Shown: positions 5,303 to 61,811, numbered from the stretch's first letter. The stretch is 64,000 nt of DNA from Candidatus Omnitrophota bacterium (GCA_024231025.1 JAAEQW010000312.1:3238-67237); one strand, 5' to 3'. Translations and numbers: made by a program. Notes: generated by a model from the sequence alone, not told the origin.

Positions 5303-5979
5303 AATAACACCTTCACTGATGGCCCCATCGTGCTAGAGAGAAAAATATTCCTCATCAAATCACCTTTTGCCGATGGTGGCTTTGCGGCATTCAACGCACC
5401 AATGAAAGCATTTATGTTTTCAATTAATGCGTCTTTGGTAAACGAAAGTTTACCTAAGCCAGCATGGATACAACCGAACTTATCCATACGAAAATCTATC
5501 TTACCTCTTTTTGCTTCTTTAATTGCTAAGGTTACATTCGGAGTTACTGATCCTGTCTTCGGAGAAGGCATGAGCCCTCGAGGACCAAGCACTCTTCCCA
5601 TTTTACTCACTTCTTTCATCATCGATGGGGTTGCAATACAATAATCAAATTCGAACCAACCCTCTTTTACGATCTTATCAATTATTTCGCTTGACCCTAT
5701 ATAATCGGCCCCTGCTTCCTTAGCTTCATTTTCTTGATCCGGTTCACAAAAAACCAATACCTTGACTTTCTTACCGATACCATTGGGAAGAACAATCGAG
5801 CCTCTTACCATCTGATCCGACTGCTTAGGGTCAACACTTAATTGACAACTAAACTCCAAAGTTTCATCAAACTTAGCAACCGGCATGCTCTTTAAAGCAT
5901 CAACCGCTGTCTCGACTGAAAAACTCTTATCTTTACCCGCCAATTTTTCTGAGTCTTTATATCTCTTGCTACTTTTCAT
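5299..5979 (-). CDS. rplA: 50S ribosomal protein L1
   Basis: 226 aa, L1 motifs (GPRGLMPSPKTGTV), 4-nt overlap with rplJ. Confidence 0.92.
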   Translation of the reverse strand: MKSSKRYKDSEKLAGKDKSFSVETAVDALKSMPVAKFDETLEFSCQLSVDPKQSDQMVRGSIVLPNGIGKKVKVLVFCEPDQENEAKEAGADYIGSSEIIDKIVKEGWFEFDYCIATPSMMKEVSKMGRVLGPRGLMPSPKTGSVTPNVTLAIKEAKRGKIDFRMDKFGCIHAGLGKLSFTKDALIENINAFIGALNAAKPPSAKGDLMRNIFLSSTMGPSVKVLL

Positions 5980-6015
5980 AACAACCTCATTTCGCCCCGT
6001 AAGGTGCTTACAGGA

Positions 6016-6453
6016 TTATTCCTTAACTTTTATTCCGCAACTACGCGCGGTACCAGCAATAATCTTTGCCGCCATTTCAATATCTACAGTATTCAAATCC
6101 GGCATTTTTTCTTTCGCGATCTCTAAAACCTGCTCTTTTGTGATTTCCCCAATAATTTCCTTGCCAGCTTGTCCGCTAGCTTTGGCCAAATTAGCAGCTC
6201 TTTTAATAAGCACTGCCGCTGGCGGCGTTTTCACTATAAAATCAAATGACTTATCATCATAGACACTGATTACAACCGGAAGAATAACGCCTTCTTTCTG
6301 CTTTGTGGCTTCATTAAAAGCTTTGCAAAACTGCATAATATTAACACCATGCTGACCCAAAGCCGGACCAACTGGCGGCGCAGGATTCGCACTTCCTGCA
6401 GGAATTTGTAATTTTATCAGATTAGCTGGTTTTTTCTTTTTTCTCTTTGCCAT
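6016..6453 (-). CDS. rplK: 50S ribosomal protein L11
   Basis: 145 aa, L11 N-terminal motif [30 protein letters not shown]. Confidence 0.95.
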
Positions 6454-17080: not shown

Positions 17081-18727
17081 TTAATGCTCTTTTACATCAA
17101 ATATGCCGTCATCAATATAATCATTTAAAGAAACAATTTCTATCTGCCAATCTTGAGTTAAATGTGCTGTATCCTGAATAAAACCTTTTCTTTTTCCCCG
17201 TAACGGAAAATGCAACCCTTCAACCTCCTGCACCGATTTAATAACAGTTTCTGTCGCTAAATCTTCTTTTCGTCCACTCCCAAACACTCCACGCCAATAC
17301 TCACGTTCCATAACTATGAGATTAAATTTAGTATCAATTAAAAACTCTATTCTTACTATTGGTGGCCAATTGTCCTCTTGTGTTTCATTATAGTTAGCAG
17401 TTACCAAATAAAGGCTGGAATTATGTTCAGTATATAAGTCTTTCAACTCTTCAGGGATATTCTCTATTCTTTTAATCCCGCTCAGACGTAATTTTCTAGA
17501 TTCGATATAACCTTCGATGTCTAATTTACGTAGACTCATAAGATAATCAACAGCTCCAGGTTGCATATCATAGGGATCATCCACCTTGTTAGTTCTGCCG
17601 TCAACCATATATAGTTTATTTTCGGTAAAAATACTTATAGCGCGCCTAGTAATGGTCTTTAAATAAAAAGGGCTTTTATAATAGGCCTCTTCAAGCGTTT
17701 CGCTCGTGCTCCCGGAAACTTTCTTATAATGTATTGTTTGAATCCTACCCATGTCATCATTGCAGGTCTTCACTAGTCCGTTTAATGTTTTATCGCTATC
17801 TGAAAGCTGATAAAGGGACGATCGTGATAAGTCATAATTTTCTAGCCTCTTAACTGCCTTATTTTTATATTTTAGTTTCTCGTCTTGTGAGATTCCGTCA
17901 TATAATAGGATTAATTCTGTATCTTCGCCGCTAATAAGCTGCTTCATCATCTCCTTCTGAGATTCACCTCTCTCTAGGACTCTCACTCCAAGCTCAGCAG
18001 CATCATAGTGACCAATAGTTTTTCTCAAAAATTCTAAATATTGCTGATCCTGAGCAATCTCCGAAGATAATTCAAAAGTTTTTTCTAAATGATACATTAT
18101 CCGCAAACATAACTCCTCGGAAAAATACTTCTGCTGTCCAATCTCATTATAACAATCAACTAAGCGATAATGTATTTTTGATAAGTCATTATTCAAAGTT
18201 TGGCGGCCGATTATTTCAGGGTTAGCTAGCATGATATTGATTGCATCTGAAAAATATTTGGTAGCATCAAGGTAACGTTTCTTGTTGTAACAATATTCAC
18301 CCAACCAATAATTAATCTCTGGGTGATTTGGATATTGAGTGTATTTCTCCTGGAGAATCGCTAAGCCCTGTTCAATGTTATCAATCCTCCAATAGTCCAA
18401 TACAACAGCAATCGCCTCTTCTATTTCTCTCATTTCTCTTTGGCTGAAACTGGCTTGTTTCATTGTGCTACTGCTAGAAACCGATCTTTGGGAAATATCT
18501 GTATAATGCCCTATGTCCTGTTCTGTACTTCCTTCTACATAATCAATGTCATCCAAATAATATGTCAAAAGCACGCCATGGATATTAGCCTTTATAAAAT
18601 CTACATTTCTTTCAATAATTTCTCCCTCTACCTTTTTCCCATCCTTTAGATGAATAGTGGCGCAGAAACAAACACTGACAGAAGAACTTGTAATAAATAA
18701 AATCAAAATAAGTATTTTCAAAAACAT
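17081..18727 (-). CDS. secreted TPR-repeat protein with conserved N-terminal beta-rich domain (paralog of 21930..23234)
   Basis: 548 aa, signal peptide MFLKILILILFITSSSVSVCFC. N-domain IHLKDGKKVEGEIIERNVDFIKANIHGVLLTYYLDDIDYVEG, then TPR-like helices. Confidence 0.6.
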   Translation of the reverse strand: MFLKILILILFITSSSVSVCFCATIHLKDGKKVEGEIIERNVDFIKANIHGVLLTYYLDDIDYVEGSTEQDIGHYTDISQRSVSSSSTMKQASFSQREMREIEEAIAVVLDYWRIDNIEQGLAILQEKYTQYPNHPEINYWLGEYCYNKKRYLDATKYFSDAINIMLANPEIIGRQTLNNDLSKIHYRLVDCYNEIGQQKYFSEELCLRIMYHLEKTFELSSEIAQDQQYLEFLRKTIGHYDAAELGVRVLERGESQKEMMKQLISGEDTELILLYDGISQDEKLKYKNKAVKRLENYDLSRSSLYQLSDSDKTLNGLVKTCNDDMGRIQTIHYKKVSGSTSETLEEAYYKSPFYLKTITRRAISIFTENKLYMVDGRTNKVDDPYDMQPGAVDYLMSLRKLDIEGYIESRKLRLSGIKRIENIPEELKDLYTEHNSSLYLVTANYNETQEDNWPPIVRIEFLIDTKFNLIVMEREYWRGVFGSGRKEDLATETVIKSVQEVEGLHFPLRGKRKGFIQDTAHLTQDWQIEIVSLNDYIDDGIFDVKEH

Positions 18728-21169: not shown

Positions 21170-21880
21170 TTAATCCTTTAGTAATTCTTGAGGTACAAAT
21201 TCTTCGATTAATTCTTTCTGAGAAACTGCAGGAGTTGTATATGCTCCGCCTAAATCATAAAGTAAGTTTTCTGCTTCATCATGCTTAAATTCTCTAGCCA
21301 AAGTAACTGCGGTGGCATTATTTTTATCTTTAAAATGTAATTTTGCTCCTTCAGAAAATAGCAATTTAATAACGTCCGTAAAACCTAGACATGCTGCTTC
21401 CATGATAGCAGTTCTCCCGTATTTATTTTGTTTGTTAATATCAACCCCCGCAAAAACAATTAACTTAATGATTTCCAAATTATTCTTATAAACAGCCCAA
21501 ATCAAAGGAGTTTTATCATTATTATCTTCTATACCCAAAATAGCACTATTTTTTATCAACAATTTAACCATATCTTCATGTTCCATCATTACAGCAATCG
21601 CAATTGCTGTTCTCCCATCCTCATTCTTAGCATCAACTTTAGCTCCTCTGGAAATCAATAATTCTGCTATCTCAACATTCCCTTCAGCAGCAGCAAACAT
21701 AAGTGGTGTATCATCGTATTTAAATCTTTTGTTTACATCAAACCCACCATCAACTAATTCTTCTATTTTTGAAACTTTCTTAAGCTTAATGCACTTTATA
21801 AATTCACTATCTATAGATTGAGCCAATACATTAAAGAGTATTCCAAAAGAGATTAATGATAGTATAAATAATTTTAGCAT
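21170..21880 (-). CDS. secreted ankyrin-repeat protein
   Basis: 236 aa, signal peptide MLKLFILSLISFGILFNVLAQS, then about five ANK repeats (TPLMFAAAEGNVEIAELLISRGAKVDAKNEDGRTA...). Confidence 0.75.
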   Translation of the reverse strand: MLKLFILSLISFGILFNVLAQSIDSEFIKCIKLKKVSKIEELVDGGFDVNKRFKYDDTPLMFAAAEGNVEIAELLISRGAKVDAKNEDGRTAIAIAVMMEHEDMVKLLIKNSAILGIEDNNDKTPLIWAVYKNNLEIIKLIVFAGVDINKQNKYGRTAIMEAACLGFTDVIKLLFSEGAKLHFKDKNNATAVTLAREFKHDEAENLLYDLGGAYTTPAVSQKELIEEFVPQELLKD

Positions 21881-23972: not shown

Positions 23973-24422
23973 TCAAAATAAATCTCTCTCGGGATTTTTT
24001 TCTTTAACTAAACTAACTATTTTCTTAATCAAACTGTCAGCTGTTTCTAAACATGCTTCTGCTTCGCTATGAGTAACGTGATTTTTTGATTCATATATAA
24101 AATCGTGCCTTCTCCTTCTCAGTCTATTAAATTTGCTAACCAAGGTATCGTATTCATGGCCCAATAATAATTTCGTAACCTCAATAATCGTCTTATGCGA
24201 TCTTTTTGTTGTCGGCAGATAACCTCTCGAATACATAAGTGCCCGACCAGCTCTAATCATAGCATGATAGGCAATCGCCAATGACCAAGTTAAGTCAATC
24301 TTAAGATTAGCGTCCGCTGTTTTCAAGTCTTTTAATGATCTTTGCAGCTGCTTATTGACCTGTTTAAAGTCGGGCGTTTGCTTCTTTATAAGCTTATCTC
24401 TTAGAAATTTTTCGTAATTCAC
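23973..24422 (-). CDS. hepT: HEPN-domain toxin (HepT-like)
   Basis: 149 aa, Rx4-6H motif in RLRRRRHDFIY. Overlaps and sits downstream of an MNT gene, the canonical mntA-hepT arrangement. Confidence 0.8.
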   Translation of the reverse strand: MNYEKFLRDKLIKKQTPDFKQVNKQLQRSLKDLKTADANLKIDLTWSLAIAYHAMIRAGRALMYSRGYLPTTKRSHKTIIEVTKLLLGHEYDTLVSKFNRLRRRRHDFIYESKNHVTHSEAEACLETADSLIKKIVSLVKEKNPERDLF

Positions 24423-24972
24423 CTTTATCTCCTATAAGCATTATCTTCTTCTCTTTTAGAATACCTAAAATAAATGGCTCCTCTTCCTTAATCTCTTGAG
24501 CAAACTCTTTCAATTTATAAAACTTATAATTTATCTCCCTTTGCAGTTTCTCTTCTAATTTATCTAACTTTTTGATTAGCTGACTCTCGTCTGGATTACC
24601 AATAATCATAAGATCTATATCGGAAAGGTAGTTCTCTTTACCTTTAGCGTAAGAACCATAAATAAAAGCAACCTTTATGCCCTTAAGCTCTTCTAGTTTT
24701 GCCCTCAGGCTCGCCTCCACGCCGACAGTTTTAAAAGTAATGCTCTTTAGCTCCTTATAAAGAGGGTAACTCTTATTCACCTTAAAATACCTAGCGTTTG
24801 CTTTATGTTCGCTGTTTAAAACACCTTCGCATACTAAATTATTAATGGTCCGTTGAAATACACCCGGCTTTTTGCCTAAAATCCTACCTACCTCCTGCAT
24901 ATAAAAAGATTTCTCAGGATTAGTAAAAAATAACCTTAGTAATTCTGCCCTATTTTTTGTCAGTGGTTTCAT
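24394..24972 (-). CDS. mntA: minimal nucleotidyltransferase antitoxin (MntA-like) with N-terminal wHTH
   Basis: 192 aa, nucleotidyltransferase motif VAFIYGSYAKGKENYLSDIDLMIIG (GS..x..DxD), N-terminal winged-helix region, 29-nt overlap with the HEPN gene. Confidence 0.8.
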   Translation of the reverse strand: MKPLTKNRAELLRLFFTNPEKSFYMQEVGRILGKKPGVFQRTINNLVCEGVLNSEHKANARYFKVNKSYPLYKELKSITFKTVGVEASLRAKLEELKGIKVAFIYGSYAKGKENYLSDIDLMIIGNPDESQLIKKLDKLEEKLQREINYKFYKLKEFAQEIKEEEPFILGILKEKKIMLIGDKGELRKISKR

Positions 24973-40103: not shown

Positions 40104-40586
40104 TCAAGGGCTGACTCTGTTATCTTCGAAGTCCTCCAGTAAAGAAGAAACTTTCCCTAAACGCTTATCTATTTCCTTATCAATAAAATAATCTGGATCT
40201 TGACGCATTCTTTTTAACTCGATTATTCTCTTTTCTAGATTGCTGATCTTACTGTCTAAATTAGAGATTTTATTTTCATTTTTTATGTATTTCTTTATAA
40301 ATGGACGTAGTTGAGATTTCGCAACGTCATAAGGAATAGATTTCCTGTGATATTTAGCAACTATCTCGGATATCTGACCTCGAAGCTTTTTTCGCTCTAA
40401 AACTTTTTGATATTTATCTGGATTTTGTTTTTTTAGTGCTTCAAGATGCTTCTTTTCAATATCCTCAGCTTGTTGTTTCATCGCTCTAAACATTTTATTG
40501 GTATCAGATGTGCCAGTTGCTTGAGGGAAACAAACTGTGCAATAGCACGAGCAAAACACTAAAATAAAAAATGCTATTTTTGCCAT
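40104..40586 (-). CDS. secreted coiled-coil protein of unknown function
   Basis: 160 aa, signal peptide, Lys/Glu-rich helical repeats. Confidence 0.45.
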   Translation of the reverse strand: MAKIAFFILVFCSCYCTVCFPQATGTSDTNKMFRAMKQQAEDIEKKHLEALKKQNPDKYQKVLERKKLRGQISEIVAKYHRKSIPYDVAKSQLRPFIKKYIKNENKISNLDSKISNLEKRIIELKRMRQDPDYFIDKEIDKRLGKVSSLLEDFEDNRVSP

Positions 40587-40616: not shown

Positions 40617-42107
40617 TCAACGCTCTAACATTTTTAGCCTTTTCTCAATACTTGCTATACTCCTTCTTAACTCTTCATTCTCGGTCTCTAATCTTCCTAT
40701 TTCCTTATCTTTTTCAACTTTTAATTCTTGAATCGCTTCAGCCAAAATTGGAGTAAGCATGCCATAATCAAGACCATAATAACTCACTTCATCATTGGGG
40801 AAATCAACTACTTCCGGAATTATTTTCTTTACGTCTTGGGCTATAAAACCAATATTTTTTCCAACACCATCGTCCAATGATTTCCACTCAAAAGCAACCC
40901 CCTCTAAGGCAAGAGTTTTCTTTAAGCTATTCTTTATTGGTGTAATATTCTTTTTTTGCCTCCTGTCGGAAGGATAAGTTATTGCCACCACGCGAATTGG
41001 TTTATCTGTCCTCAAGCCATAATTTGATCCAGCAATCCAAGTAGTTGTAGCACCACCAGCAAGATTAGTCCAATCGAACCTTCCTCCATAAGCAGTACCT
41101 ATCCCAAGAATGCCTGTAAGACCATACCCAACAACACCAGTTGTAGGACCATACCCAATAACACCTTTATCGTTATTGCCAAGACCTGTAACACCGGCAG
41201 TATCACCAACGCCTGAAACGCCAGCCGCAATACCAGTTCCCATAATAGCGACATTATCAGTCGAAACAACATGGAGTTTACATCCTGGATCGGATTTATT
41301 AATACCGACATCGCCATCACCAGTTATCCTCATGCTTTCAGCACCATTAGTAGCAAACCTAAGTGGTCGATCACCATAAGACCACACCCCCGCACTAGCA
41401 TTGCTAGAATAAAAGTCTACATAATCAAAACCACTACGTTGGAGTCTTATATCAGCAGTAGCACCATTTCGTACAATGTGTAATTCTTGACCAGGAGTTA
41501 TTGTTCCAATACCAACATTACCGTTTCCTCTATTTATTGTTAGTGCAGCCACGCCAACAGCGCTATTGCTATGGCGCATTATGTTAAAAGAAAAATTAGT
41601 CAAACCGGTCATATTCGCTCCAGGAAATATTGCACTATTATTACTCTCATAAACAAGAGAAAAGCCATCTCTTCGATTATCATCTTCTTTAAAAAATATT
41701 CTTGAGCTTGTTCTGTCTGAGCTAGTACGATAAGTATGAAACTCCAGCCCTTCAGTATCACTAGCAGAAGCATATAAATTAAAATTAGCACCTTGAGGAA
41801 CGTTACTAATAGGACCAGTGGCAGTTAGTACCGCACTATCCACACCTCTAACGTGGAGTTGCGCGCTAGGAGCCGTTAGACCAATACCAGCCCTTCCCTC
41901 TACCACTAAGTCCGCATCATTGTTTATTGTTCCGCCCCAATCATTTTGGTTCTCATCAAAATAGGTATCTCCAATAGCCATCTTTTTGGAACGCAGCTCG
42001 TTGTAAACACCATACGGTGCCGGATAATAAGTTGTAATTGTCAGAGTTTCAGCAAATAAAATAATCGGCACGCATAAAAGGACTAAACATAAAAACATTT
42101 TTTTCAT
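40617..42107 (-). CDS. secreted phage-tail-fibre-like protein with C-terminal intramolecular chaperone (peptidase S74-like) domain and terminal coiled coil
   Basis: 496 aa, signal peptide. Repeated VGIGT..P...LHV beta-helix motifs and a Gly-rich stretch. C-terminal SDRRQKKNITPI...LEGVAFEW...GFIAQDV...P..V matches the self-cleaving chaperone-of-endosialidase signature SD.R.K.NI. Confidence 0.65.
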   Translation of the reverse strand: MKKMFLCLVLLCVPIILFAETLTITTYYPAPYGVYNELRSKKMAIGDTYFDENQNDWGGTINNDADLVVEGRAGIGLTAPSAQLHVRGVDSAVLTATGPISNVPQGANFNLYASASDTEGLEFHTYRTSSDRTSSRIFFKEDDNRRDGFSLVYESNNSAIFPGANMTGLTNFSFNIMRHSNSAVGVAALTINRGNGNVGIGTITPGQELHIVRNGATADIRLQRSGFDYVDFYSSNASAGVWSYGDRPLRFATNGAESMRITGDGDVGINKSDPGCKLHVVSTDNVAIMGTGIAAGVSGVGDTAGVTGLGNNDKGVIGYGPTTGVVGYGLTGILGIGTAYGGRFDWTNLAGGATTTWIAGSNYGLRTDKPIRVVAITYPSDRRQKKNITPIKNSLKKTLALEGVAFEWKSLDDGVGKNIGFIAQDVKKIIPEVVDFPNDEVSYYGLDYGMLTPILAEAIQELKVEKDKEIGRLETENEELRRSIASIEKRLKMLER

Positions 42108-42162
42108 AACTACCTCCTAAAATTACAATCTAAAGTCGCTTAAGAATCACACAGCAATAATC

Positions 42163-42268
42163 AAGATACAAGACACAATAACCAAACAATGACCAATAAC
42201 CAAATTCAAATAACCAAGCGGTTTGGTAATTGAATATTGAAATTTGTTTGTATCTTGTAACTTGTATC
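42163..42268. repeat. intergenic repeat family R2, copy b
   Basis: CAAGATACAAGACACAATAACCAAACAATGACCAATAACCAAATTCAAATAACCAAGCGGTTTGGTAATTGAATATTGAAATTTGT...TTGTATCTTGTAACTTGTATCTTG is virtually identical to the reverse complement of 44333-44473. Confidence 0.8.
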
Positions 42269-42370
42269 TTGTTTCTTATATCCCTATCTTTTTCGCCACC
42301 TTATTTATACCATTAAATCAACTTATAATCAAGTTGCGTAATCGGTCAAAAACTCTTATTTCATAAGAGA

Positions 42371-43522
42371 TTATAACAAATTAATCGCCTCTTTAAGGCA
42401 CTTTACATCCACCGTAAGCGCAAAGCGAATATACCCTTCACCGTACTTACCAAATCCTAATCCCGGAGTGGCAACAATACCCTTTTTCATGAGCTCTTTC
42501 GCGAAATCTATTGAAGACTTATTACCTTTGGGTAATTTCGCCCAAACATAAAACGTGCTATCGGCGTGTATATCCTTAAATCCTTTTGCCCGTAAACCTT
42601 TTACAAAGACATCTCTTCTGTTTTTAATAGTTTTTCTCAAACGATTAACATAATCGGCCTCATTAGAAAGAGCATAAGCCGCGGCATCTTGAACCGCGCT
42701 GAATATTCCTGAATCAAGGTTAGCCTTTACTTTCGCCAGCCCTTTAATCAGCTCGCTACCTCCACATGCCCATCCAACACGAAAACCAGTCATGCAAAAT
42801 GTTTTAGAATGTGAATGAAACCCAACCGCCACCTCTTTAGCGCCTTTCACCTCAAAAATACTGTGCGGCTTCTTATCAAAATAAACTTCCGAGTAGGCAT
42901 TGTCATAAGCAATAATAATTCCATACTTTGCACAAAATTTAACCACCTTGCGTAAAAAACTTAGTGGCGCAATCGCAGTTGTCGGATTATTAGGATAATT
43001 TAGGTAAATAAGCTTTGCTTTATTTCTTACTTTAAGAGGAATCTTATCTAAATCAGGAAGAAAGTTGTTTTCAGCTAAAAGCGGCACTTCATATGCATTA
43101 GCACCGGCAAAAAGTGCAGCGCTTCGATACCCCGGATATCCGGGCGAAGGAATTAAAACATAATCCCCTGGATTAACAAACCCTAGCGGAAAATGCACCA
43201 ATCCTTCTTTTGAACCAATAAGCGGTAGAATTTCGCTATCGACATCTAAAGAAACATTAAATCTTTTTTTAAACCAACTTTTAATTGTTTTTTTGAATTC
43301 CGGCTTACCCTGATCAAGCGCATACTTCTGATTAGCCTTAATTTTTGCTGAATCATACAGAACCTTATTCACCTGCTTCGGCGCCAATATGTCTGGATCA
43401 CCAATACTTAAGTCAATAAAGTTAACTTTCTTTTTCCTTAATTCACCCTTTTTTCTGTCGATTTCTGCGAATAAATACGGCGGTAAATCTTGCAATCTCT
43501 TCGACCATTGAAACTTTCCCAT
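42371..43522 (-). CDS. dapL: PLP-dependent aminotransferase, probably LL-diaminopimelate aminotransferase (DapL-type)
   Basis: 383 aa class-I aminotransferase (SHSKTFCMTGFRVGW lysine region), N-terminal LPPYLFAEID reminiscent of DapL, adjacent to dapB. Confidence 0.55.
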   Translation of the reverse strand: MGKFQWSKRLQDLPPYLFAEIDRKKGELRKKKVNFIDLSIGDPDILAPKQVNKVLYDSAKIKANQKYALDQGKPEFKKTIKSWFKKRFNVSLDVDSEILPLIGSKEGLVHFPLGFVNPGDYVLIPSPGYPGYRSAALFAGANAYEVPLLAENNFLPDLDKIPLKVRNKAKLIYLNYPNNPTTAIAPLSFLRKVVKFCAKYGIIIAYDNAYSEVYFDKKPHSIFEVKGAKEVAVGFHSHSKTFCMTGFRVGWACGGSELIKGLAKVKANLDSGIFSAVQDAAAYALSNEADYVNRLRKTIKNRRDVFVKGLRAKGFKDIHADSTFYVWAKLPKGNKSSIDFAKELMKKGIVATPGLGFGKYGEGYIRFALTVDVKCLKEAINLL

Positions 43523-43574
43523 AATACTCCTTTCCTAAAACCACGTTACCTTTGGGGTTTGGTAACGGGGTTAA

Positions 43575-44291
43575 TTAATTTGAATCGAATAGAACGTTTT
43601 GCATTGAATATAATCCAGGTTGCTTGTTGATAAGCCATTTTGCCGCTGTAATTGCGCCTTTGGCAAAAATATCGCGTGTTTTTGCTGAGTGAAAAAGTTC
43701 GATTTTATCAACATCACTTTCAAAAGTAACTTTATGATCTCCGATTATCTCTCCTTCTCTAATTGCTGAAATATCAGGGGTTCTTATGCTAAAGCCCTGA
43801 TCGTTTATAACTTGGGCAATCTTTTTTGCCGTTCCCGACGGAGAATCTTTTTTGTGAATATGATGAGCTTCTTCAATCGCAACGCTATATCCAGAAAGCG
43901 CAGCGGCTGCGTCTTTCAATAGTTTAAAAAGTATGTTTACCCCAACGCTCATGTTTGGCGAATAAACAATGGGTATACTTTTTGCCGCCTGCTCAATCAT
44001 TGTGCCTTCATCAGTTTTAAGTCCGGTTGTACCAATAACAACCGGAACTTTGTACTTAACGAAATAATCTAAATGATCTAAAGTTGCCTGAGGTGAAGTA
44101 AACTCAATAAAACATTCGCATTTTTCTACGTCTTTAAGGTCACAAGTAATCGCTATGCCTTGTGACTTTCCTACATCAGGATGGTCAGCGCTTTCCAGAC
44201 CTACAACAACATCGCAAGAAGGGTCCTCATTAGCTAAATGAAGAATTCTCATTCCCATTTTACCGCATACACCGCTTATTCCTAACTTCAT
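43575..44291 (-). CDS. dapB: 4-hydroxy-tetrahydrodipicolinate reductase
   Basis: 238 aa, N-terminal GxxGxxG (GISGVCGKMG), conserved EAHHIHKKDSPSGTA motif. Confidence 0.9.
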   Translation of the reverse strand: MKLGISGVCGKMGMRILHLANEDPSCDVVVGLESADHPDVGKSQGIAITCDLKDVEKCECFIEFTSPQATLDHLDYFVKYKVPVVIGTTGLKTDEGTMIEQAAKSIPIVYSPNMSVGVNILFKLLKDAAAALSGYSVAIEEAHHIHKKDSPSGTAKKIAQVINDQGFSIRTPDISAIREGEIIGDHKVTFESDVDKIELFHSAKTRDIFAKGAITAAKWLINKQPGLYSMQNVLFDSN

Positions 44292-44332
44292 TATTATCCT
44301 CCTGGTACAATATGTTTGTTAAATAATTAAGT

Positions 44333-44473
44333 TACAAGATACAAGTTACAAGATACCCGCCTGCCGGCGGGCAGGCAAACAAATTACAAATTTCAATATT
44401 CAATTACCAAACCGCTTGGTTATTTGAATTTGGTTATTGGTCATTGTTTGGTTATTGTGTCTTGTGTCTTGGT
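44333..44473. repeat. intergenic repeat family R2, copy c (inverted relative to copy b, carries the GC hairpin insertion)
   Basis: Reverse complement matches 42163-42268 nearly base for base, plus inserted CCCGCCTGCCGGCGGGCAGGC hairpin segment. Confidence 0.8.
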
Positions 44474-44490
44474 TATTTTTATATCGCTTC

Positions 44491-56542: not shown

Positions 56543-57532
56543 CTATTTAACAATGGTTACTGCCTTCCAAGGTGATACTTCTAGTTCCTTTCGCCAAAAT
56601 TGGAGCATGTCTTCGGCAGTTTTCTCGGGAGAAATCTGAGGGCTCCAGCCTGTAATGCTGGTAAATTTGTCAATGCATGGGATTTGTGAAGTAACATCAC
56701 TTGGCCTTAGCAAATTAGGATCAACCTTGATCTCGCACTTTACTTTAGCATGGGCCAATAACATATCTAAAACTTCGCCAACTTTCATAGTTCTGTTGCC
56801 ACCAATATTATAAACATCTCCTGCCGTACACTTATTAACCAAAAGCCAATAGGCCTTTACCGCGTCTCTAACGTCGCAAATCGTTCTTACTGAATCTAGA
56901 TTGCCAACAGAAATAACCGGATCCTTTAATTTTAGCTCTGAGGCAGCAATTTGTTTGGCAAAAAATGATGCAAAAAATACATCACCCCTGCGCGGTCCGG
57001 TATGCGTAAACATTCTAGTTCTAATTGTTTTTAATTTATGAGTTAGCCAATACTGCAAAGCAATCATGTCCTCGCCCACTTTACTTACTGCATACGGTGA
57101 TGCCGGACGAAATGGACAATCTTCAGTTATTGGCACGTTTTCCTTTGCTACCTGGCCGTACACTTCCGAAGATGAACACACATGAATGATCGGATCAATT
57201 CCGTTGATGCGCACAGCCTCTAAGAGGTTTGTTGTGCCGATAACATTAGTCCAAAGGGTTTGCGTCGGTGCGTTAAAACTACTTAGCACATAGCTTTGTG
57301 CGGCCAAATGAAAAATTACATCAGGTTTGATCGCATCAATTTGACGAATAAGCGAACCCAAATCACTTAAATCGGCATCAAAAAGATTAATTTTATCATA
57401 TACCTGCGATAAATTTTCACGATTACTGCGCCAACGACAAAGCCCAAAAATCTCATGATCACCTAATGACAGCAAATACTCTGCCAAATGGCTCCCAACA
57501 AATCCAGTTACACCGGTTATCAGAATTTTCAT
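56543..57532 (-). CDS. NDP-sugar 4,6-dehydratase (GDP-mannose/GDP-heptose 4,6-dehydratase Gmd/DmhA-like)
   Basis: 329 aa, Rossmann ILITGVTGFVGSHL, NVIGTTNLLEAVR, and Gmd-like FTHTGPRRGDVF..SFFAKQI segment (compare NHESPRRGETFVTRKI). Confidence 0.65.
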   Translation of the reverse strand: MKILITGVTGFVGSHLAEYLLSLGDHEIFGLCRWRSNRENLSQVYDKINLFDADLSDLGSLIRQIDAIKPDVIFHLAAQSYVLSSFNAPTQTLWTNVIGTTNLLEAVRINGIDPIIHVCSSSEVYGQVAKENVPITEDCPFRPASPYAVSKVGEDMIALQYWLTHKLKTIRTRMFTHTGPRRGDVFFASFFAKQIAASELKLKDPVISVGNLDSVRTICDVRDAVKAYWLLVNKCTAGDVYNIGGNRTMKVGEVLDMLLAHAKVKCEIKVDPNLLRPSDVTSQIPCIDKFTSITGWSPQISPEKTAEDMLQFWRKELEVSPWKAVTIVK

Positions 57533-58407
57533 AGCAGTTTATATCTCTTTAGTATTTTCTTAAAACTAGCAAGATTATTCGCGCTCATCTTATAAAGCGG
57601 CAAGCGCATGTTAAGCTCGATTAATCCCATTAGTGACATCGCGGTTTTAACCGGAATTGGATTAGTCTCCATAAACAAAGCCTTGATTAAGTCATACAAA
57701 TGCAATTGCATTTTTTTAGCTTTTTCGACATCTCCATTTAAATAAGCATGAATCATTGATGCGTTTTCCTTAGGCACAATATTTGCGGAAACCGAAATCA
57801 CACCACGACAACCAATTGACATTAAAGGGATCGTTACTTCATCACAACCAGAAATAAGCAAGAACTTGCTATCTACTCGGCTCATAAGTTTAGTGGCTTG
57901 ATCAAGCGATCCGCTTGCCTCTTTTATACCAATTATGTTTTTACATGATTTATATGCACGCGCAACAGTTTCCGGTAAAATGTTGCTTCCCGTTCTTGAT
58001 GGAACATTGTAAATAATAATTGGAATTGAAACCCGCGATGCAATCTTTTTAAAATGCTGGTAAAGCCCTTCTTGAGTGGGCTTATTGTAGTAAGGCGTAA
58101 TCACCAATGCTGCATCGGCTTTTACCTTTTTTGCATGCAAAGTTAAATCCAGCGCCTCTTTTGTTGAATTAGAGCCCGCTCCGGCAATAATCGGCACTCT
58201 CCCTCTTGCCTCCTCTACTGCAATCTGAACAAGATACTTATGCTCTGAATGAGAAAGCGTCGCGCTCTCGCCGGTTGTTCCGCAAACCAATATTGCATCA
58301 GTTTTATTTTTAATCTGCCAATTAATCAAAAAACGTACCTTCTCTTCGTTAATGTCTCCATTTTTTTTCATCGGCGTAACTAGCGCAACCATACTTCCTT
58401 TTAGCAT
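57529..58407 (-). CDS. dapA: 4-hydroxy-tetrahydrodipicolinate synthase
   Basis: 292 aa DapA signature (GTTGESATLS, active-site Lys region), 4-nt overlap with upstream dehydratase gene. Confidence 0.92.
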   Translation of the reverse strand: MLKGSMVALVTPMKKNGDINEEKVRFLINWQIKNKTDAILVCGTTGESATLSHSEHKYLVQIAVEEARGRVPIIAGAGSNSTKEALDLTLHAKKVKADAALVITPYYNKPTQEGLYQHFKKIASRVSIPIIIYNVPSRTGSNILPETVARAYKSCKNIIGIKEASGSLDQATKLMSRVDSKFLLISGCDEVTIPLMSIGCRGVISVSANIVPKENASMIHAYLNGDVEKAKKMQLHLYDLIKALFMETNPIPVKTAMSLMGLIELNMRLPLYKMSANNLASFKKILKRYKLL

Positions 58408-59207
58408 AAGATCTCTCCTTTGTATATTTGTGATGCCTTACCACCTAACCAAACACTATTTTGCTGTTTATCAAAATACACGGTAATTGTTTCACCGCTT
58501 TTATTTTTAACCCTAACTTTGAATTTAGCATCTTTGCTTGTGAAAAAACGACTTGAAATAATTGCCGAAGCAACCATCCCCGTACCACAGGCAAGAGTTT
58601 CCGCTTCGACTCCGCGTTCATAAGTGCGCAACTCGATTGAATTTGGCCCGGTAAGTTCCACAAAATTCACGTTCACTCCGGCTGGAGCAAATTTCTTATG
58701 AAAGCGAATCTCACGCCCAATCGCGTTAACATCTATACTGGCAAGGGCCTGCACTAAAACAACAGCGTGAGGAACACCAGTGTTGATAAAATTAACCTTT
58801 AGGCCACGGGAATACACCTTTAAAGGTATGTTATGCTTTTCACCAAATGGATTTGGCAATTTTACTTTAACACCGCGATCCACCTTTTCCGACTCAACAA
58901 TACCGGCAATAGTGTCGAAGTGAATAATTTTTTTGTCGGTTATGTTTTTTCGTGCCCATAACACAACACATCGGGCACCATTGCCGCACATTTCAGCTTC
59001 ACTACCGTCGGAATTAAAAATTCGCATCTTAAATAAAGCTTTCATTGAAGATTCGATCACCAATAGTCCATCGGCCCCAACCCCAAGATGGCGCTGGCAA
59101 TATTTCTTAGCAAATTGTTTATAATTTATTCCTTTGCTTTTTCTTGCATCGAGAAGAATAAAATCATTGCCTGACGCCTGAACTTTGCAAAACGCTACTT
59201 TTTTCAT
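58401..59207 (-). CDS. dapF: diaminopimelate epimerase
   Basis: 268 aa, catalytic Cys motifs (MCGNGARC, LACGTG). Confidence 0.9.
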   Translation of the reverse strand: MKKVAFCKVQASGNDFILLDARKSKGINYKQFAKKYCQRHLGVGADGLLVIESSMKALFKMRIFNSDGSEAEMCGNGARCVVLWARKNITDKKIIHFDTIAGIVESEKVDRGVKVKLPNPFGEKHNIPLKVYSRGLKVNFINTGVPHAVVLVQALASIDVNAIGREIRFHKKFAPAGVNVNFVELTGPNSIELRTYERGVEAETLACGTGMVASAIISSRFFTSKDAKFKVRVKNKSGETITVYFDKQQNSVWLGGKASQIYKGEILC

Positions 59208-60445
59208 ATGATTTCCTTTTGAATTAAATCTTTATAGCTCTCTCTTTTTCTGATAATCCTTGCCTCTTTGCCGTTGACTAGAACCTCTGCGGCTCTTGGG
59301 CGAGAATTATAATTTGAACTCATCGCAAAGCCATACGCCCCGGCTCCCAAAACTGCTATATAATCATTTTCACCAACGTCTAACGCGCGCGCCTTACCAA
59401 GGAAATCACCACTTTCGCAAACCGGGCCAACTATATCAGACAACTTACTGCTTTTATATTTGACTTTTTTCACCGGTAGAATTGTATGATATGCTTCATA
59501 TAACGACGGCCTAAGCAAGTCATTCATTGCTGCATCGACAATTACAAATCGCTTAAATGGAGTTTCTTTTATATAAGTAGTTTTGGCAATCAATGCACCG
59601 GCATTACCAACTATAAAACGTCCCGGCTCTAAAACAATTTTGAGCCCACTTTTTTTAAGCAATGGAATAACTTTTTTAGCAAAATCACTCGCGGTTTGAG
59701 GCGTTTCTTTGTTGTAAATTATTCCAAGCCCTCCACCAATATTTAAATGCTCTAAGATTATCCCTTTGCCACGCAACACATCAATAAGCTTGTTTACTCG
59801 TTTAATTGCGGCAATAAACGGTGACGATTTAGTAATTTGCGAACCAATATGAATGTGAATGCCAACAATTTTTAAATTGGGATATTTAGCGCCATTTAAG
59901 AAAATGTTGCGCACCGTTGCGATGTCCATGCCGAATTTTGTATCTTTTTTACCCGTTGTGATGTAATCGTGGGTCATAGCTTCAACATCAGGGTTAACCC
60001 GAAGGGCAACTTTAACATTTTTATGCATCGATGCGGCTATCGCGTTTATTCGAGCGAGCTCAGGAGAAGATTCAACATTAAACATAAGTATTCCGTAATT
60101 GATTGCCTCTTTTATCTCCTTAGTGGTTTTACCAACCGAAGCATAAACAATTTTCTTACCCGAGCAAACAACCTTTTGCGCACGATACAGCTCTCCACCG
60201 GAAACAATATCCAGCCCCGATCCATCCTTAACCAAAACTTTAAGGATCGCAAGGTTGGAATTCGCCTTAACGGAATAACAAATCAAGGGATTAAGCGCAG
60301 TAAAAGCTTTTTTTATTTTACGAAAATGATCCAACAGTGTGGCTTGGCTGTAAACATAAAGAGGCGTGGCAAATTTATTTGCCAAATCAGAAACCAACAT
60401 TTCTTCACAGTACAAATCGTTTTTTTTGTAGTTAAAATAATGCAT
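59204..60445 (-). CDS. lysA: diaminopimelate decarboxylase
   Basis: 413 aa fold-III PLP decarboxylase (YSVKANSNLAIL, GGGLGI). Confidence 0.9.
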   Translation of the reverse strand: MHYFNYKKNDLYCEEMLVSDLANKFATPLYVYSQATLLDHFRKIKKAFTALNPLICYSVKANSNLAILKVLVKDGSGLDIVSGGELYRAQKVVCSGKKIVYASVGKTTKEIKEAINYGILMFNVESSPELARINAIAASMHKNVKVALRVNPDVEAMTHDYITTGKKDTKFGMDIATVRNIFLNGAKYPNLKIVGIHIHIGSQITKSSPFIAAIKRVNKLIDVLRGKGIILEHLNIGGGLGIIYNKETPQTASDFAKKVIPLLKKSGLKIVLEPGRFIVGNAGALIAKTTYIKETPFKRFVIVDAAMNDLLRPSLYEAYHTILPVKKVKYKSSKLSDIVGPVCESGDFLGKARALDVGENDYIAVLGAGAYGFAMSSNYNSRPRAAEVLVNGKEARIIRKRESYKDLIQKEII

Positions 60446-60446
60446 A

Positions 60447-61811
60447 TTAATGTAGTTTTAATTTTGGAATCTTACTTTTTGCGGTTTTCTTAGACAAAAC
60501 CGCATATTTTGGATTCATCACTTTGGTTAATATTTTTTTATTTAAATCCTTGTGGAAAGTTGAAAGAAGCTTATCAGAAATATTCTGAATTTTTACTTTT
60601 TTCTCTTCAGAGTGACGAATAAGCTTGCCTACAATATCATGGGCATCTTTAAAGGCAACACCTTTCTTCATCACAAGAAACTCGGCAATCTCGGTTGCAT
60701 AAAGATGCTCGTCTTTTAAGGCGTTATCAATGTTGTCTTTTTTGAGTTTAAGTTTTTTGATAAACTTTGCCATAATCGTAAGTTCATCTTTTACGGTTTC
60801 GACCGAAGCAAAAAGAGGCTCTTTATCAAGCTGCATATCGCGATTATAAGCAAGAGGCAACCCTTTCATTGTGGTTAACACCGAAAACAGACTACCGTAG
60901 ACCTTGCCGGTGCTGCCACGAACAAGCTCAAGAAAATCAGCATTCTTTTTGTGTGGCATCAGCGAAGATCCCGTACAAAACTCTTCCGGTAAATCAAGAT
61001 AATCAAATTCTCTTGTTGAATACATAATCATATCTTCAGACATACGTGATAAGTGCATTTGGATAATTGCCAATATACTTAAAAATTCAATCACAAAATC
61101 CCGGCTTGAGACGTGATCCATTGGGCTTGATAACTCTCCAAAATGTTTTCTAATTACACCGGATATTGATATTGCACGACGGTAGTAGTCGGGGCTCAAT
61201 GGACTCCCGGCAAGTGCGCCAGCACCAATATGAATCTTGAGTCCTTCTTCAAACTTAACTAACCGATCATAGTCACGCATCAGCATTTGCCCATAAGCCA
61301 AAATATAGTCGCTAAAATATACTACCTGGGCGCGCTGAGTGTGAGTATAACCAATAAAATATCGTTTTTCGTAATCCTGAGATTTTTTAAATATTTCTTC
61401 AAGCAAATTACTCAACAATTTAATTGTTTCAATATATTGAGTTAAAACGTACATCTTTTCATCAAAAACAACCTGATCATTGCGTGAACGCAAAGTGTGC
61501 AGCTTTAGGGCCGCTTTTCCGGCTTTTTCTTTCACTTTGTTTTGGATATCGCTATGAATATCTTCACATTCGGGGTCAAATTTAAACTTGCCCTTTTTTA
61601 TTTGAGAAAGAATCTCGCGTAACGCCCCAACAAGCGCATCCTCTTCGTCCTTACTTAAAATTTCTGCTGCGGCAAGCGCCCCAACATGAATTAAAGAGTG
61701 ATACACATCATATTCAGCAAGCTTATGATCGTAATTAATAGATTTTTGAAACTCAAAGAAATCTTTATCAATCTCTTTTTTAAAACGTCCACCCCACATT
61801 TTTTTATCCAT
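60447..61811 (-). CDS. argH: argininosuccinate lyase
   Basis: 454 aa fumarase/aspartase-family lyase signature (GSSLMPHKKNAD). Confidence 0.92.
   Translation of the reverse strand: MDKKMWGGRFKKEIDKDFFEFQKSINYDHKLAEYDVYHSLIHVGALAAAEILSKDEEDALVGALREILSQIKKGKFKFDPECEDIHSDIQNKVKEKAGKAALKLHTLRSRNDQVVFDEKMYVLTQYIETIKLLSNLLEEIFKKSQDYEKRYFIGYTHTQRAQVVYFSDYILAYGQMLMRDYDRLVKFEEGLKIHIGAGALAGSPLSPDYYRRAISISGVIRKHFGELSSPMDHVSSRDFVIEFLSILAIIQMHLSRMSEDMIMYSTREFDYLDLPEEFCTGSSLMPHKKNADFLELVRGSTGKVYGSLFSVLTTMKGLPLAYNRDMQLDKEPLFASVETVKDELTIMAKFIKKLKLKKDNIDNALKDEHLYATEIAEFLVMKKGVAFKDAHDIVGKLIRHSEEKKVKIQNISDKLLSTFHKDLNKKILTKVMNPKYAVLSKKTAKSKIPKLKLH

Follow-up and report, generated by a model that had tools for sequence, protein, structure and literature searches.

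What is a protein built like a phage tail fibre doing among the ordinary genes of a bacterial chromosome? The question is raised by the minus-strand open reading frame (ORF) at positions 40617–42107 of a 64,000-nucleotide stretch of DNA from a Candidatus Omnitrophota bacterium (GCA_024231025.1 JAAEQW010000312.1:3238-67237), the whole of which we call the window. The ORF begins with ATG and encodes 496 residues, and the identical protein is deposited as 'hypothetical protein GY858_07990 [Candidatus Omnitrophica bacterium]'. An earlier note on this DNA had suggested a domesticated trimeric fibre or adhesin, and our own reading lies close to it. We put at a little over 0.7 the probability that the gene is cellular, as opposed to viral, and codes for a surface fibre of the mosaic adhesive trimer (MAT) type, which is exported through the Sec pathway, forms a trimer with the help of an S74 domain, cleaves itself at Ser380 and serves as an adhesin. 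The earlier suggestion is in good agreement with the MAT family, which supplies the best PDB matches both by sequence and by predicted fold.

The MAT family was defined in the predator Bdellovibrio bacteriovorus, which takes hold of prey with fibres of this kind, as a set of 21 trimeric fibres, 13 of which end in an S74 domain with an SDxxxK motif and 8 in other tips, namely TNF-like folds, C-type lectins and novel sandwiches (Caulton et al. 2024, PMC10769870). In that work MAT proteins were found displayed at the surface, Bd3182 was found to cleave itself at S782 and Bd2439 to bind glycans. The Omnitrophota protein has the layout of the S74 subgroup (Bd3182; PDB 8OJN, 8ONB, 8ONC), with a signal peptide, a beta-helix shaft capped by xVGIGxxxPxxxLH loops and a C-terminal S74 domain carrying SDxxxK. 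The likeness extends to the family as a whole: in both organisms a conserved domain common to all paralogues comes directly after the signal peptide (the two domains being likened by position), paralogues without S74 carry TNF/C1q-like and other tips, and the genes are scattered among housekeeping genes.

The clearest part of the protein is its C-terminal end. The Pfam model Peptidase_S74 (PF13884) matches residues 380–434 across profile positions 1–57 of 58, with E = 6.6e-16 and 58.8 bits against a cut-off of 22, and the match opens on the Ser-Lys motif SDRRQK at residues 380–385. Ser380 and Lys385 are each at least 90% conserved among 60 relatives. The pattern S[DE]xxxK is present in 98 of the 121 relatives that bear an S74 domain, and nearly all of the other 23 have a Ser with a Lys a few positions after it; the fragment predicted to be released has a family median of 111 residues. 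PHROGs matches many tail-fibre families to the C-terminal third (best E = 1e-25) and, more weakly, to the shaft, whereas NCBIfam has no model for the fibre protein. The AlphaFold2 (AF2) model is confident here, with block means of the predicted local distance difference test (pLDDT) of 78–97 over residues 380–496 and 87–97 over the helix at residues 448–495. These results bear out the S74-type chaperone signature and the tail-fibre profile matches anticipated in the earlier note, as well as the terminal helix that it had taken for a coiled coil; in the model, however, this helix belongs to the S74/intramolecular chaperone auto-processing (ICA) fold, with no extra coiled coil.

At the other end, the first 19 residues (MKKMFLCLVLLCVPIILFA, followed by ETL) are laid out in n, h and c regions like a Sec signal peptide, a call made by inspection and Kyte-Doolittle hydropathy. 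A strongly hydrophobic 12-residue leader window occurs in 65 of 65 scorable family members (median Kyte-Doolittle score 2.79, minimum 1.98), and in the 45 relatives that were aligned the leader is likewise hydrophobic, its final A or S preceding an acidic pair. A leader of the signal-peptide type, as proposed earlier, is a feature of the family as well as of this protein. A lipoprotein anchor was considered and ruled out, the family having neither a conserved Cys nor a lipobox.

Between the two ends, a regular expression for the loop motif G-x-[VA]-G-I-[GN]-x3-P-x3-L-H-[VI] finds three copies, at residues 71–86, 196–211 and 265–280, which together with a Gly-rich segment (residues 289–345, low pLDDT in the AF2 monomer) account for the G-rich and VGIGT..P...LHV repeats that had been noticed before. 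The three copies are the same motif as in the published alignment of MAT capping loops (Suppl. Fig. 18 of PMC10769870), whose consensus is V-G-G/N-pi-x-x-P-x-x-x-L and whose examples include NVGIGATSPSAKLQ, NLGLGTAAPTSALH and, from the myelin regulatory factor (MyRF), RVGINTDRPDEALV. A phmmer search of all PDB sequences returns only Bd3182 and Bd2133 (E about 3e-4), placing residues 163–213 and 249–297 on their beta-helix at '...MRI..G.VGIG...P...LHV'.

A Foldseek comparison of the model with the PDB leads to the same proteins, the best matches being Bd2133 (8ond), Bd3182 (8onb, 8ojn, 8onc), Bd1334 (8oml), Bd2439 (8onf) and the ICA domain of MyRF (7dc3). The last is the solved structure that superposes best on residues ~375–496 (probability 1.00, root-mean-square deviation 2.8 Å over 122 columns, target-normalised TM score 0.63), and it shares a capping-loop motif before the cleavage site. 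MyRF is nevertheless a eukaryotic membrane-bound transcription factor whose cleavage frees a DNA-binding domain, and its function is unrelated. Phage gp34 and K1F chaperone structures rank far lower, the K1F entry 3GW6 being a weak match (E 0.78). Phage S74 fibres and spikes such as the C-terminal domain of the K1F endosialidase (3GW6) and T5 pb1 (4UW8) do share the S74 domain, the Ser-Lys motif, the C-terminal helix and an upstream trimeric beta-helix; they lack a signal peptide, however, and have virion-docking N-termini, where the Omnitrophota protein has a Sec leader, a cell-specific N-terminal module and no phage context.

Taken together with the MAT literature, these features suggest the following course of events. 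The precursor, with a predicted mass of 53.4 kDa, would be exported via Sec and lose its 19-residue leader, after which three chains would intertwine in the periplasm into a beta-helical fibre, as homology suggests. The S74 chaperone (residues 380–496), by the same homology, would nucleate and check the assembly of the trimer. Once the trimer has formed, Ser380, activated by Lys385, would cut the chain just before itself, a step to which the observed motif and its conservation point. This cut would free a chaperone fragment of 13.4 kDa and expose the tip of a mature chain of 37.8 kDa (residues 20–379). The N-terminal module (residues 20–88), which is common to paralogues of any tip, may then dock the base of the fibre to a common element of the cell surface, while the variable distal part may bind to a ligand carried by another cell or by a particle; a glycan on the surface of host or prey cells is a plausible one. 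We propose these last two steps because of the analogy with the Bdellovibrio MAT fibres and the suspected host-dependent lifestyle of Omnitrophota.

The N-terminal module, which we refer to as the N-module, is absent from the earlier note, as is the multi-copy, tip-swapping family that it defines. Its pattern is ETLTITTYYPAPYGVY...AIGD...VVEGxxGIG, and no Pfam or NCBIfam model matches it. After the leader the family consensus runs [EQ]-[ED]-[TS]-[LI]-T-[IL]-T-T-Y-Y-P-[AS]-P-[YF]-G-V-Y-x-E-[LM]-R-x-x-R-x-A-I-G-D-x-Y and continues, past a variable insert, with A-D-L-V-V-E-G-N-V-G-I-G-T-x-x-P. An exhaustive HMMER profile search with the 69-residue module returns 49,366 proteins, the best 150 of which are giant proteins (1,500–7,900 residues) with up to 63 matches each, most of which cover only the profile's second half; the named giants among these 150 come from unrelated lineages (Burkholderiales, Candidatus Taylorbacteria). 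As the giants are hit mostly in that half, 'LVVEGNVGIGTxxPxxxLxV' is to be read as a generic fibre repeat, and only the TTYYPxPYG half appears specific to the Omnitrophota family. The same division is seen in viruses: a scan of 2.9 million viral contigs in IMG/VR finds 15 loci, all essentially matching the generic half, and YYPxPxG is present in none of the 15, from which we conclude that the specific module is cellular. Against PDB sequences, the N-module profile finds only the loop repeats of Bd2133 and a chance match to a bacteriocin. A separate observation on the giant proteins is that they carry 16–63 capping-loop repeats, so that this repeat is widely used in the construction of very long fibres.

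Searched against 5.8 billion proteins, the fibre protein gives 407 matches, and those with a named source are nearly all from Omnitrophota. Apart from the protein itself, no match exceeds ~36% identity over a long stretch; the first ~90 residues alone, however, recur at ~50% identity in dozens of Omnitrophota proteins whose C-termini are unrelated. Many relatives are annotated 'tail fiber domain-containing protein', the name that the NCBI Prokaryotic Genome Annotation Pipeline gives to members of this same family in Omnitrophota metagenome-assembled genomes (MAGs); it covers the S74 end only and leaves the shared N-module and the paralogues without S74 nameless. When one genome per GTDB species was scanned for the N-module, more than 599 pattern matches were obtained, of which at least 445 were confirmed by tblastn, and 78 loci were kept. 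All 78 come from MAGs titled Omnitrophota, given generic Planctomycetes-Verrucomicrobia-Chlamydiae (PVC) names or, in one case, called 'uncultured bacterium'. They hold 98 ORFs with the module, tandem arrays of two or three being common, and are flanked by housekeeping genes of various kinds. A single genome has several copies; the 1.82-Mb chromosome CP070807, for instance, has at least six.

Three further observations concern the reach of the family. CAZPYY01, a MAG titled 'uncultured Planctomycetia bacterium', has at least five N-module genes on separate contigs (L002, L005, L008, L020, L027); the genome is probably one of Omnitrophota, deposited under a generic PVC label. One N-module protein with a YadA-head tip (P0049) is deposited under 'Candidatus Altiarchaeales archaeon': either the contig belongs to Omnitrophota and was mis-binned, or the entry hints that the two organisms are physically associated. 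There are also many complete short N-module proteins of ~110–145 residues (P0121–P0240, such as P0130 on the 1.55-Mb chromosome CP070837; another lies at 5938–6345 of locus L040), which consist of the leader, the module and a short C-terminal beta segment often ending '...TVTNGIITxxxC'. They may form a minimal subfamily, or they may be stubs that remained after tips were exchanged.

While the N-module is constant, the tips are not. A Pfam scan of 80 full-length members puts S74 at the end of 24 (30%) and Gp53-like_C, C1q, Peptidase_G2 or ApeC at the end of single members; most have tips matched by no Pfam model. YadA-head, collagen, Gp34-trimer or HylP-like segments occur in other relatives. 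In one MAG there is a pair of paralogues, P0058 and the C1q-tipped P0052, with 97% identity over residues 1–91 and unrelated sequences from there on. Their identity stops exactly at GNVGIGTTSP, and this breakpoint is direct evidence that tips have been exchanged at the conserved loop. From these comparisons we conclude that the family's tips are apparently swapped by recombination at the capping-loop motif, which would give a diversified repertoire of adhesins.

It is conceivable, at rather less than even odds, that the TTYYPxPYGxY module is a phylum-specific docking device unrelated to the N-domain of the Bdellovibrio MAT proteins, and that it marks the whole host- or prey-recognition repertoire of Omnitrophota. 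If this were so, there would be hundreds of recognition genes, several per genome, with tips swapped at the first capping loop, and the tip set of a genome would predict which cells these uncultured nanobacteria attach to.

Several points weigh against the reading of the protein as a MAT-type adhesin and deserve to be set beside the evidence above. The AF2 monomer of the whole protein (60-sequence alignment) has a mean pLDDT of 65.5 and is confident only at residues ~380–496 and in some strands of the shaft. A model of the N-terminal 196 residues (58 sequences) is too poor for a fold search, with a mean pLDDT of 63.6 and a predicted TM score of 0.36. No neighbour family that might serve as a secretion, anchoring or assembly partner recurs among the 736 ORFs clustered from the 78 loci, and the gene is present in single copy in the window, which contains no paralogue. 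The mature chain has 360 residues, compared with about 600–1,000 in Bdellovibrio. Moreover, we infer trimerisation, autoproteolysis, export across the outer membrane and binding by analogy, from the literature on S74 and MAT proteins. There are other differences from the Bdellovibrio proteins as well: the Omnitrophota N-module has ~70 residues and a TTYYPxPYGxY signature where the Bdellovibrio N-domain has ~130 residues, and the phylum and lifestyle are different.

The family is linked to prey or hosts by analogy, many of its tips have no recognisable lectin fold, and the genome, with MCP chemotaxis, ExbBD and full biosynthetic pathways, need not be that of an obligate symbiont. On these grounds one may ask whether the fibre is a structural part of the envelope unrelated to other cells, engaging mineral or organic particles or a biofilm matrix or forming a surface coat, with the diversity of tips serving antigenic variation or phage evasion. 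We consider this unlikely: those tips that can be recognised (C1q/TNF-like, Gp53-like, ApeC, YadA head) are modules typical of ligand-binding adhesins, and the closest characterised relatives bind prey glycans.

A second possibility is a secreted or surface-bound depolymerase resembling a tailspike and not chiefly an adhesin, in which the S74 domain would serve to fold a catalytic beta-helix for breaking down the capsules or walls of hosts or prey. Pfam, NCBIfam and PHROGs reveal no catalytic domain in the fibre protein besides S74, the shaft matches the non-enzymatic beta-helix repeats of MAT proteins, and a mature chain of 360 residues is short; these points make an enzyme improbable, even though S74 was first described on endosialidases, some relatives have hyaluronidase-like segments (P0047, PF07212) and phage hyaluronidases are found among the weak Foldseek matches at ranks 20–38.

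Finally, 359 viral S74/ICA fibre structures in BFVD match at E<=1e-3, so that the overall build is common in phages too. One could suppose that a prophage, a tailocin or an extracellular contractile injection system (CIS) left the gene behind or has it as cargo, the product being a true tail fibre assembled in the cytoplasm onto a baseplate encoded elsewhere. This is very improbable in spite of these matches and those to PHROG tail-fibre families, since a Sec-type leader in all relatives does not fit cytoplasmic assembly of a phage tail, the specific half of the N-module does not occur in the viral contigs scanned, the base composition resembles that of the flanks (GC 0.42 over the gene and about 0.38 beside it, a slight rise attributed to the Gly-rich sequence), no phage, tailocin or CIS structural gene was found among the ORFs scanned across the window, just as the earlier note had described its context, and no phage or CIS gene recurs near the 78 related loci.

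For the cellular MAT-type fibre, then, the architecture with S74 processing and the likely mechanism are already known, and an Omnitrophica example is in print, PMC10769870 listing one MAT homologue from this group. The novelty lies in how large and coherent the Omnitrophota family is, in its phylum-specific N-module and in the clear breakpoint of tip swapping; the MAT concept now takes in a further phylum, where examples far outnumber the one listed before. Omnitrophota are widespread, uncultured, mostly ultra-small and suspected of living off other cells. As to how they recognise their partners, attention has so far gone mainly to pili and giant ORFs (PMC10066038). Two Omnitrophota genomics papers, PMC10066038 among them, consider these as possible adhesins and do not mention the N-module family, on which we found no other paper. 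As the family can be recognised by its leader, TTYYPxPYG module and variable tips, it supplies a concrete list of candidate adhesins for each genome. The coordinates of the fibre gene and of the features next to it are collected in Table 1.

Table 1. The fibre gene, the parts of its product and the adjoining elements, in window coordinates
Feature	Position	Strand	Basis or remark
Shine-Dalgarno AGGAGG	42113-42118	-	5 nt ahead of ATG, read from sequence
Signal peptide, aa 1-19 (MKKMFLCLVLLCVPIILFA)	42051-42107	-	predicted signal peptidase I cut before E20
Family-specific N-module, aa 20-88 (ETLTITTYYPAPYGVYNELRSKKMAIGD...ADLVVEGRAGIGLTAPSAQLHV)	41844-42050	-	proposed fibre base or anchor
Capping-loop motif 1, aa 71-86 (GRAGIGLTAPSAQLHV)	41850-41897	-	regular expression; published MAT loop alignment
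Beta-rich shaft and tip of mature fibre, aa 89-379	40971-41843	-	AF2 strands, phmmer, Foldseek
Capping-loop motif 2, aa 196-211 (GNVGIGTITPGQELHI)	41475-41522	-	regular expression, phmmer, MAT loop alignment
Capping-loop motif 3, aa 265-280 (GDVGINKSDPGCKLHV)	41268-41315	-	regular expression, phmmer, MAT loop alignment
Gly-rich segment, aa 289-345	41073-41243	-	33% Gly; G-x-x-G-V/I repeats
Catalytic motif S380-D-R-R-Q-K385	40953-40970	-	predicted self-cleavage of the P379-S380 bond
Peptidase_S74/intramolecular chaperone domain, aa 380-496 (helix 448-495)	40620-40970	-	PF13884, PHROG, AF2, Foldseek
160-aa ORF with signal peptide and coiled coil	40104-40586	-	30 nt past the fibre stop codon
Imperfect palindromic intergenic repeat ('R2')	42156-42277	.	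263-nt spacer 5' of the fibre gene

All sizeable genes of the window lie on the minus strand, and the ORFs scanned with Pfam or PHROGs are ordinary chromosomal genes or match no family. The former include rpoB, ligA, fmt, priA, a ClpB-like ATPase, ExbBD, MCP, uvrA, aspartate dehydrogenase, panC and folK, as well as a dapL-type aminotransferase, dapB, sugar-nucleotide and glycosyltransferase genes, dapA, dapF, lysA and argH. The earlier note had named folK and dapL as the neighbours of the fibre gene, and both are indeed close by; folK does not adjoin it directly, however, as the 160-residue ORF sits between the two and is possibly co-transcribed with the fibre gene. This ORF has no significant family match in Pfam, PHROGs or NCBIfam. 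A homologue (33% identical) adjoins an N-module gene in one of the 78 loci (L032, 8034–8597), where it lies just downstream of a 638-residue N-module gene, behind a terminator-like hairpin. With adjacency in 1 of 78 loci, a hairpin between the genes and no family match, a role as dedicated partner of the fibre is unsupported.

The spacer between the dapL-type aminotransferase gene and the fibre gene holds the R2 repeat, an inverted repeat with 55-nt arms that is predicted to fold as RNA into a long hairpin (z = -3.46). The repeat is real and present twice; it had been placed downstream of the fibre gene and in fact lies on the 5' side of this minus-strand gene. The second copy, at ~44325–44475, is in inverse orientation and has an additional GC-rich palindrome (CCGCCTGCCGGCGGGCAGG); a 47-nt core is identical in both, and the element measures ~120–150 nt. 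It looks like a MITE-like element (miniature inverted-repeat transposable element) or a REP-like one (repetitive extragenic palindrome). As a regulatory RNA it was rejected, Rfam giving only spurious matches to microRNA hairpins far below threshold.

Elsewhere in the window, the lysine and arginine genes are split, the dapL-type aminotransferase gene and dapB being at 42371–44291 and dapA, dapF, lysA and argH at 57529–61811. The ~13-kb block between them contains glycosyltransferase, sugar-nucleotide, radical-SAM and transketolase-like genes and resembles an inserted surface-polysaccharide island. At 17081–18727 (minus strand) there is a 548-residue ORF with no Pfam or PHROG match, and not far from it, at 21170–21880 (minus strand), a gene for a 236-residue ankyrin-repeat protein, a type often tied to host interaction in symbionts. 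Overlapping genes for a HEPN protein (149 residues) and a nucleotidyltransferase (192 residues) at 23973–24972 (minus strand) have the layout of a HEPN/MNT toxin-antitoxin pair.

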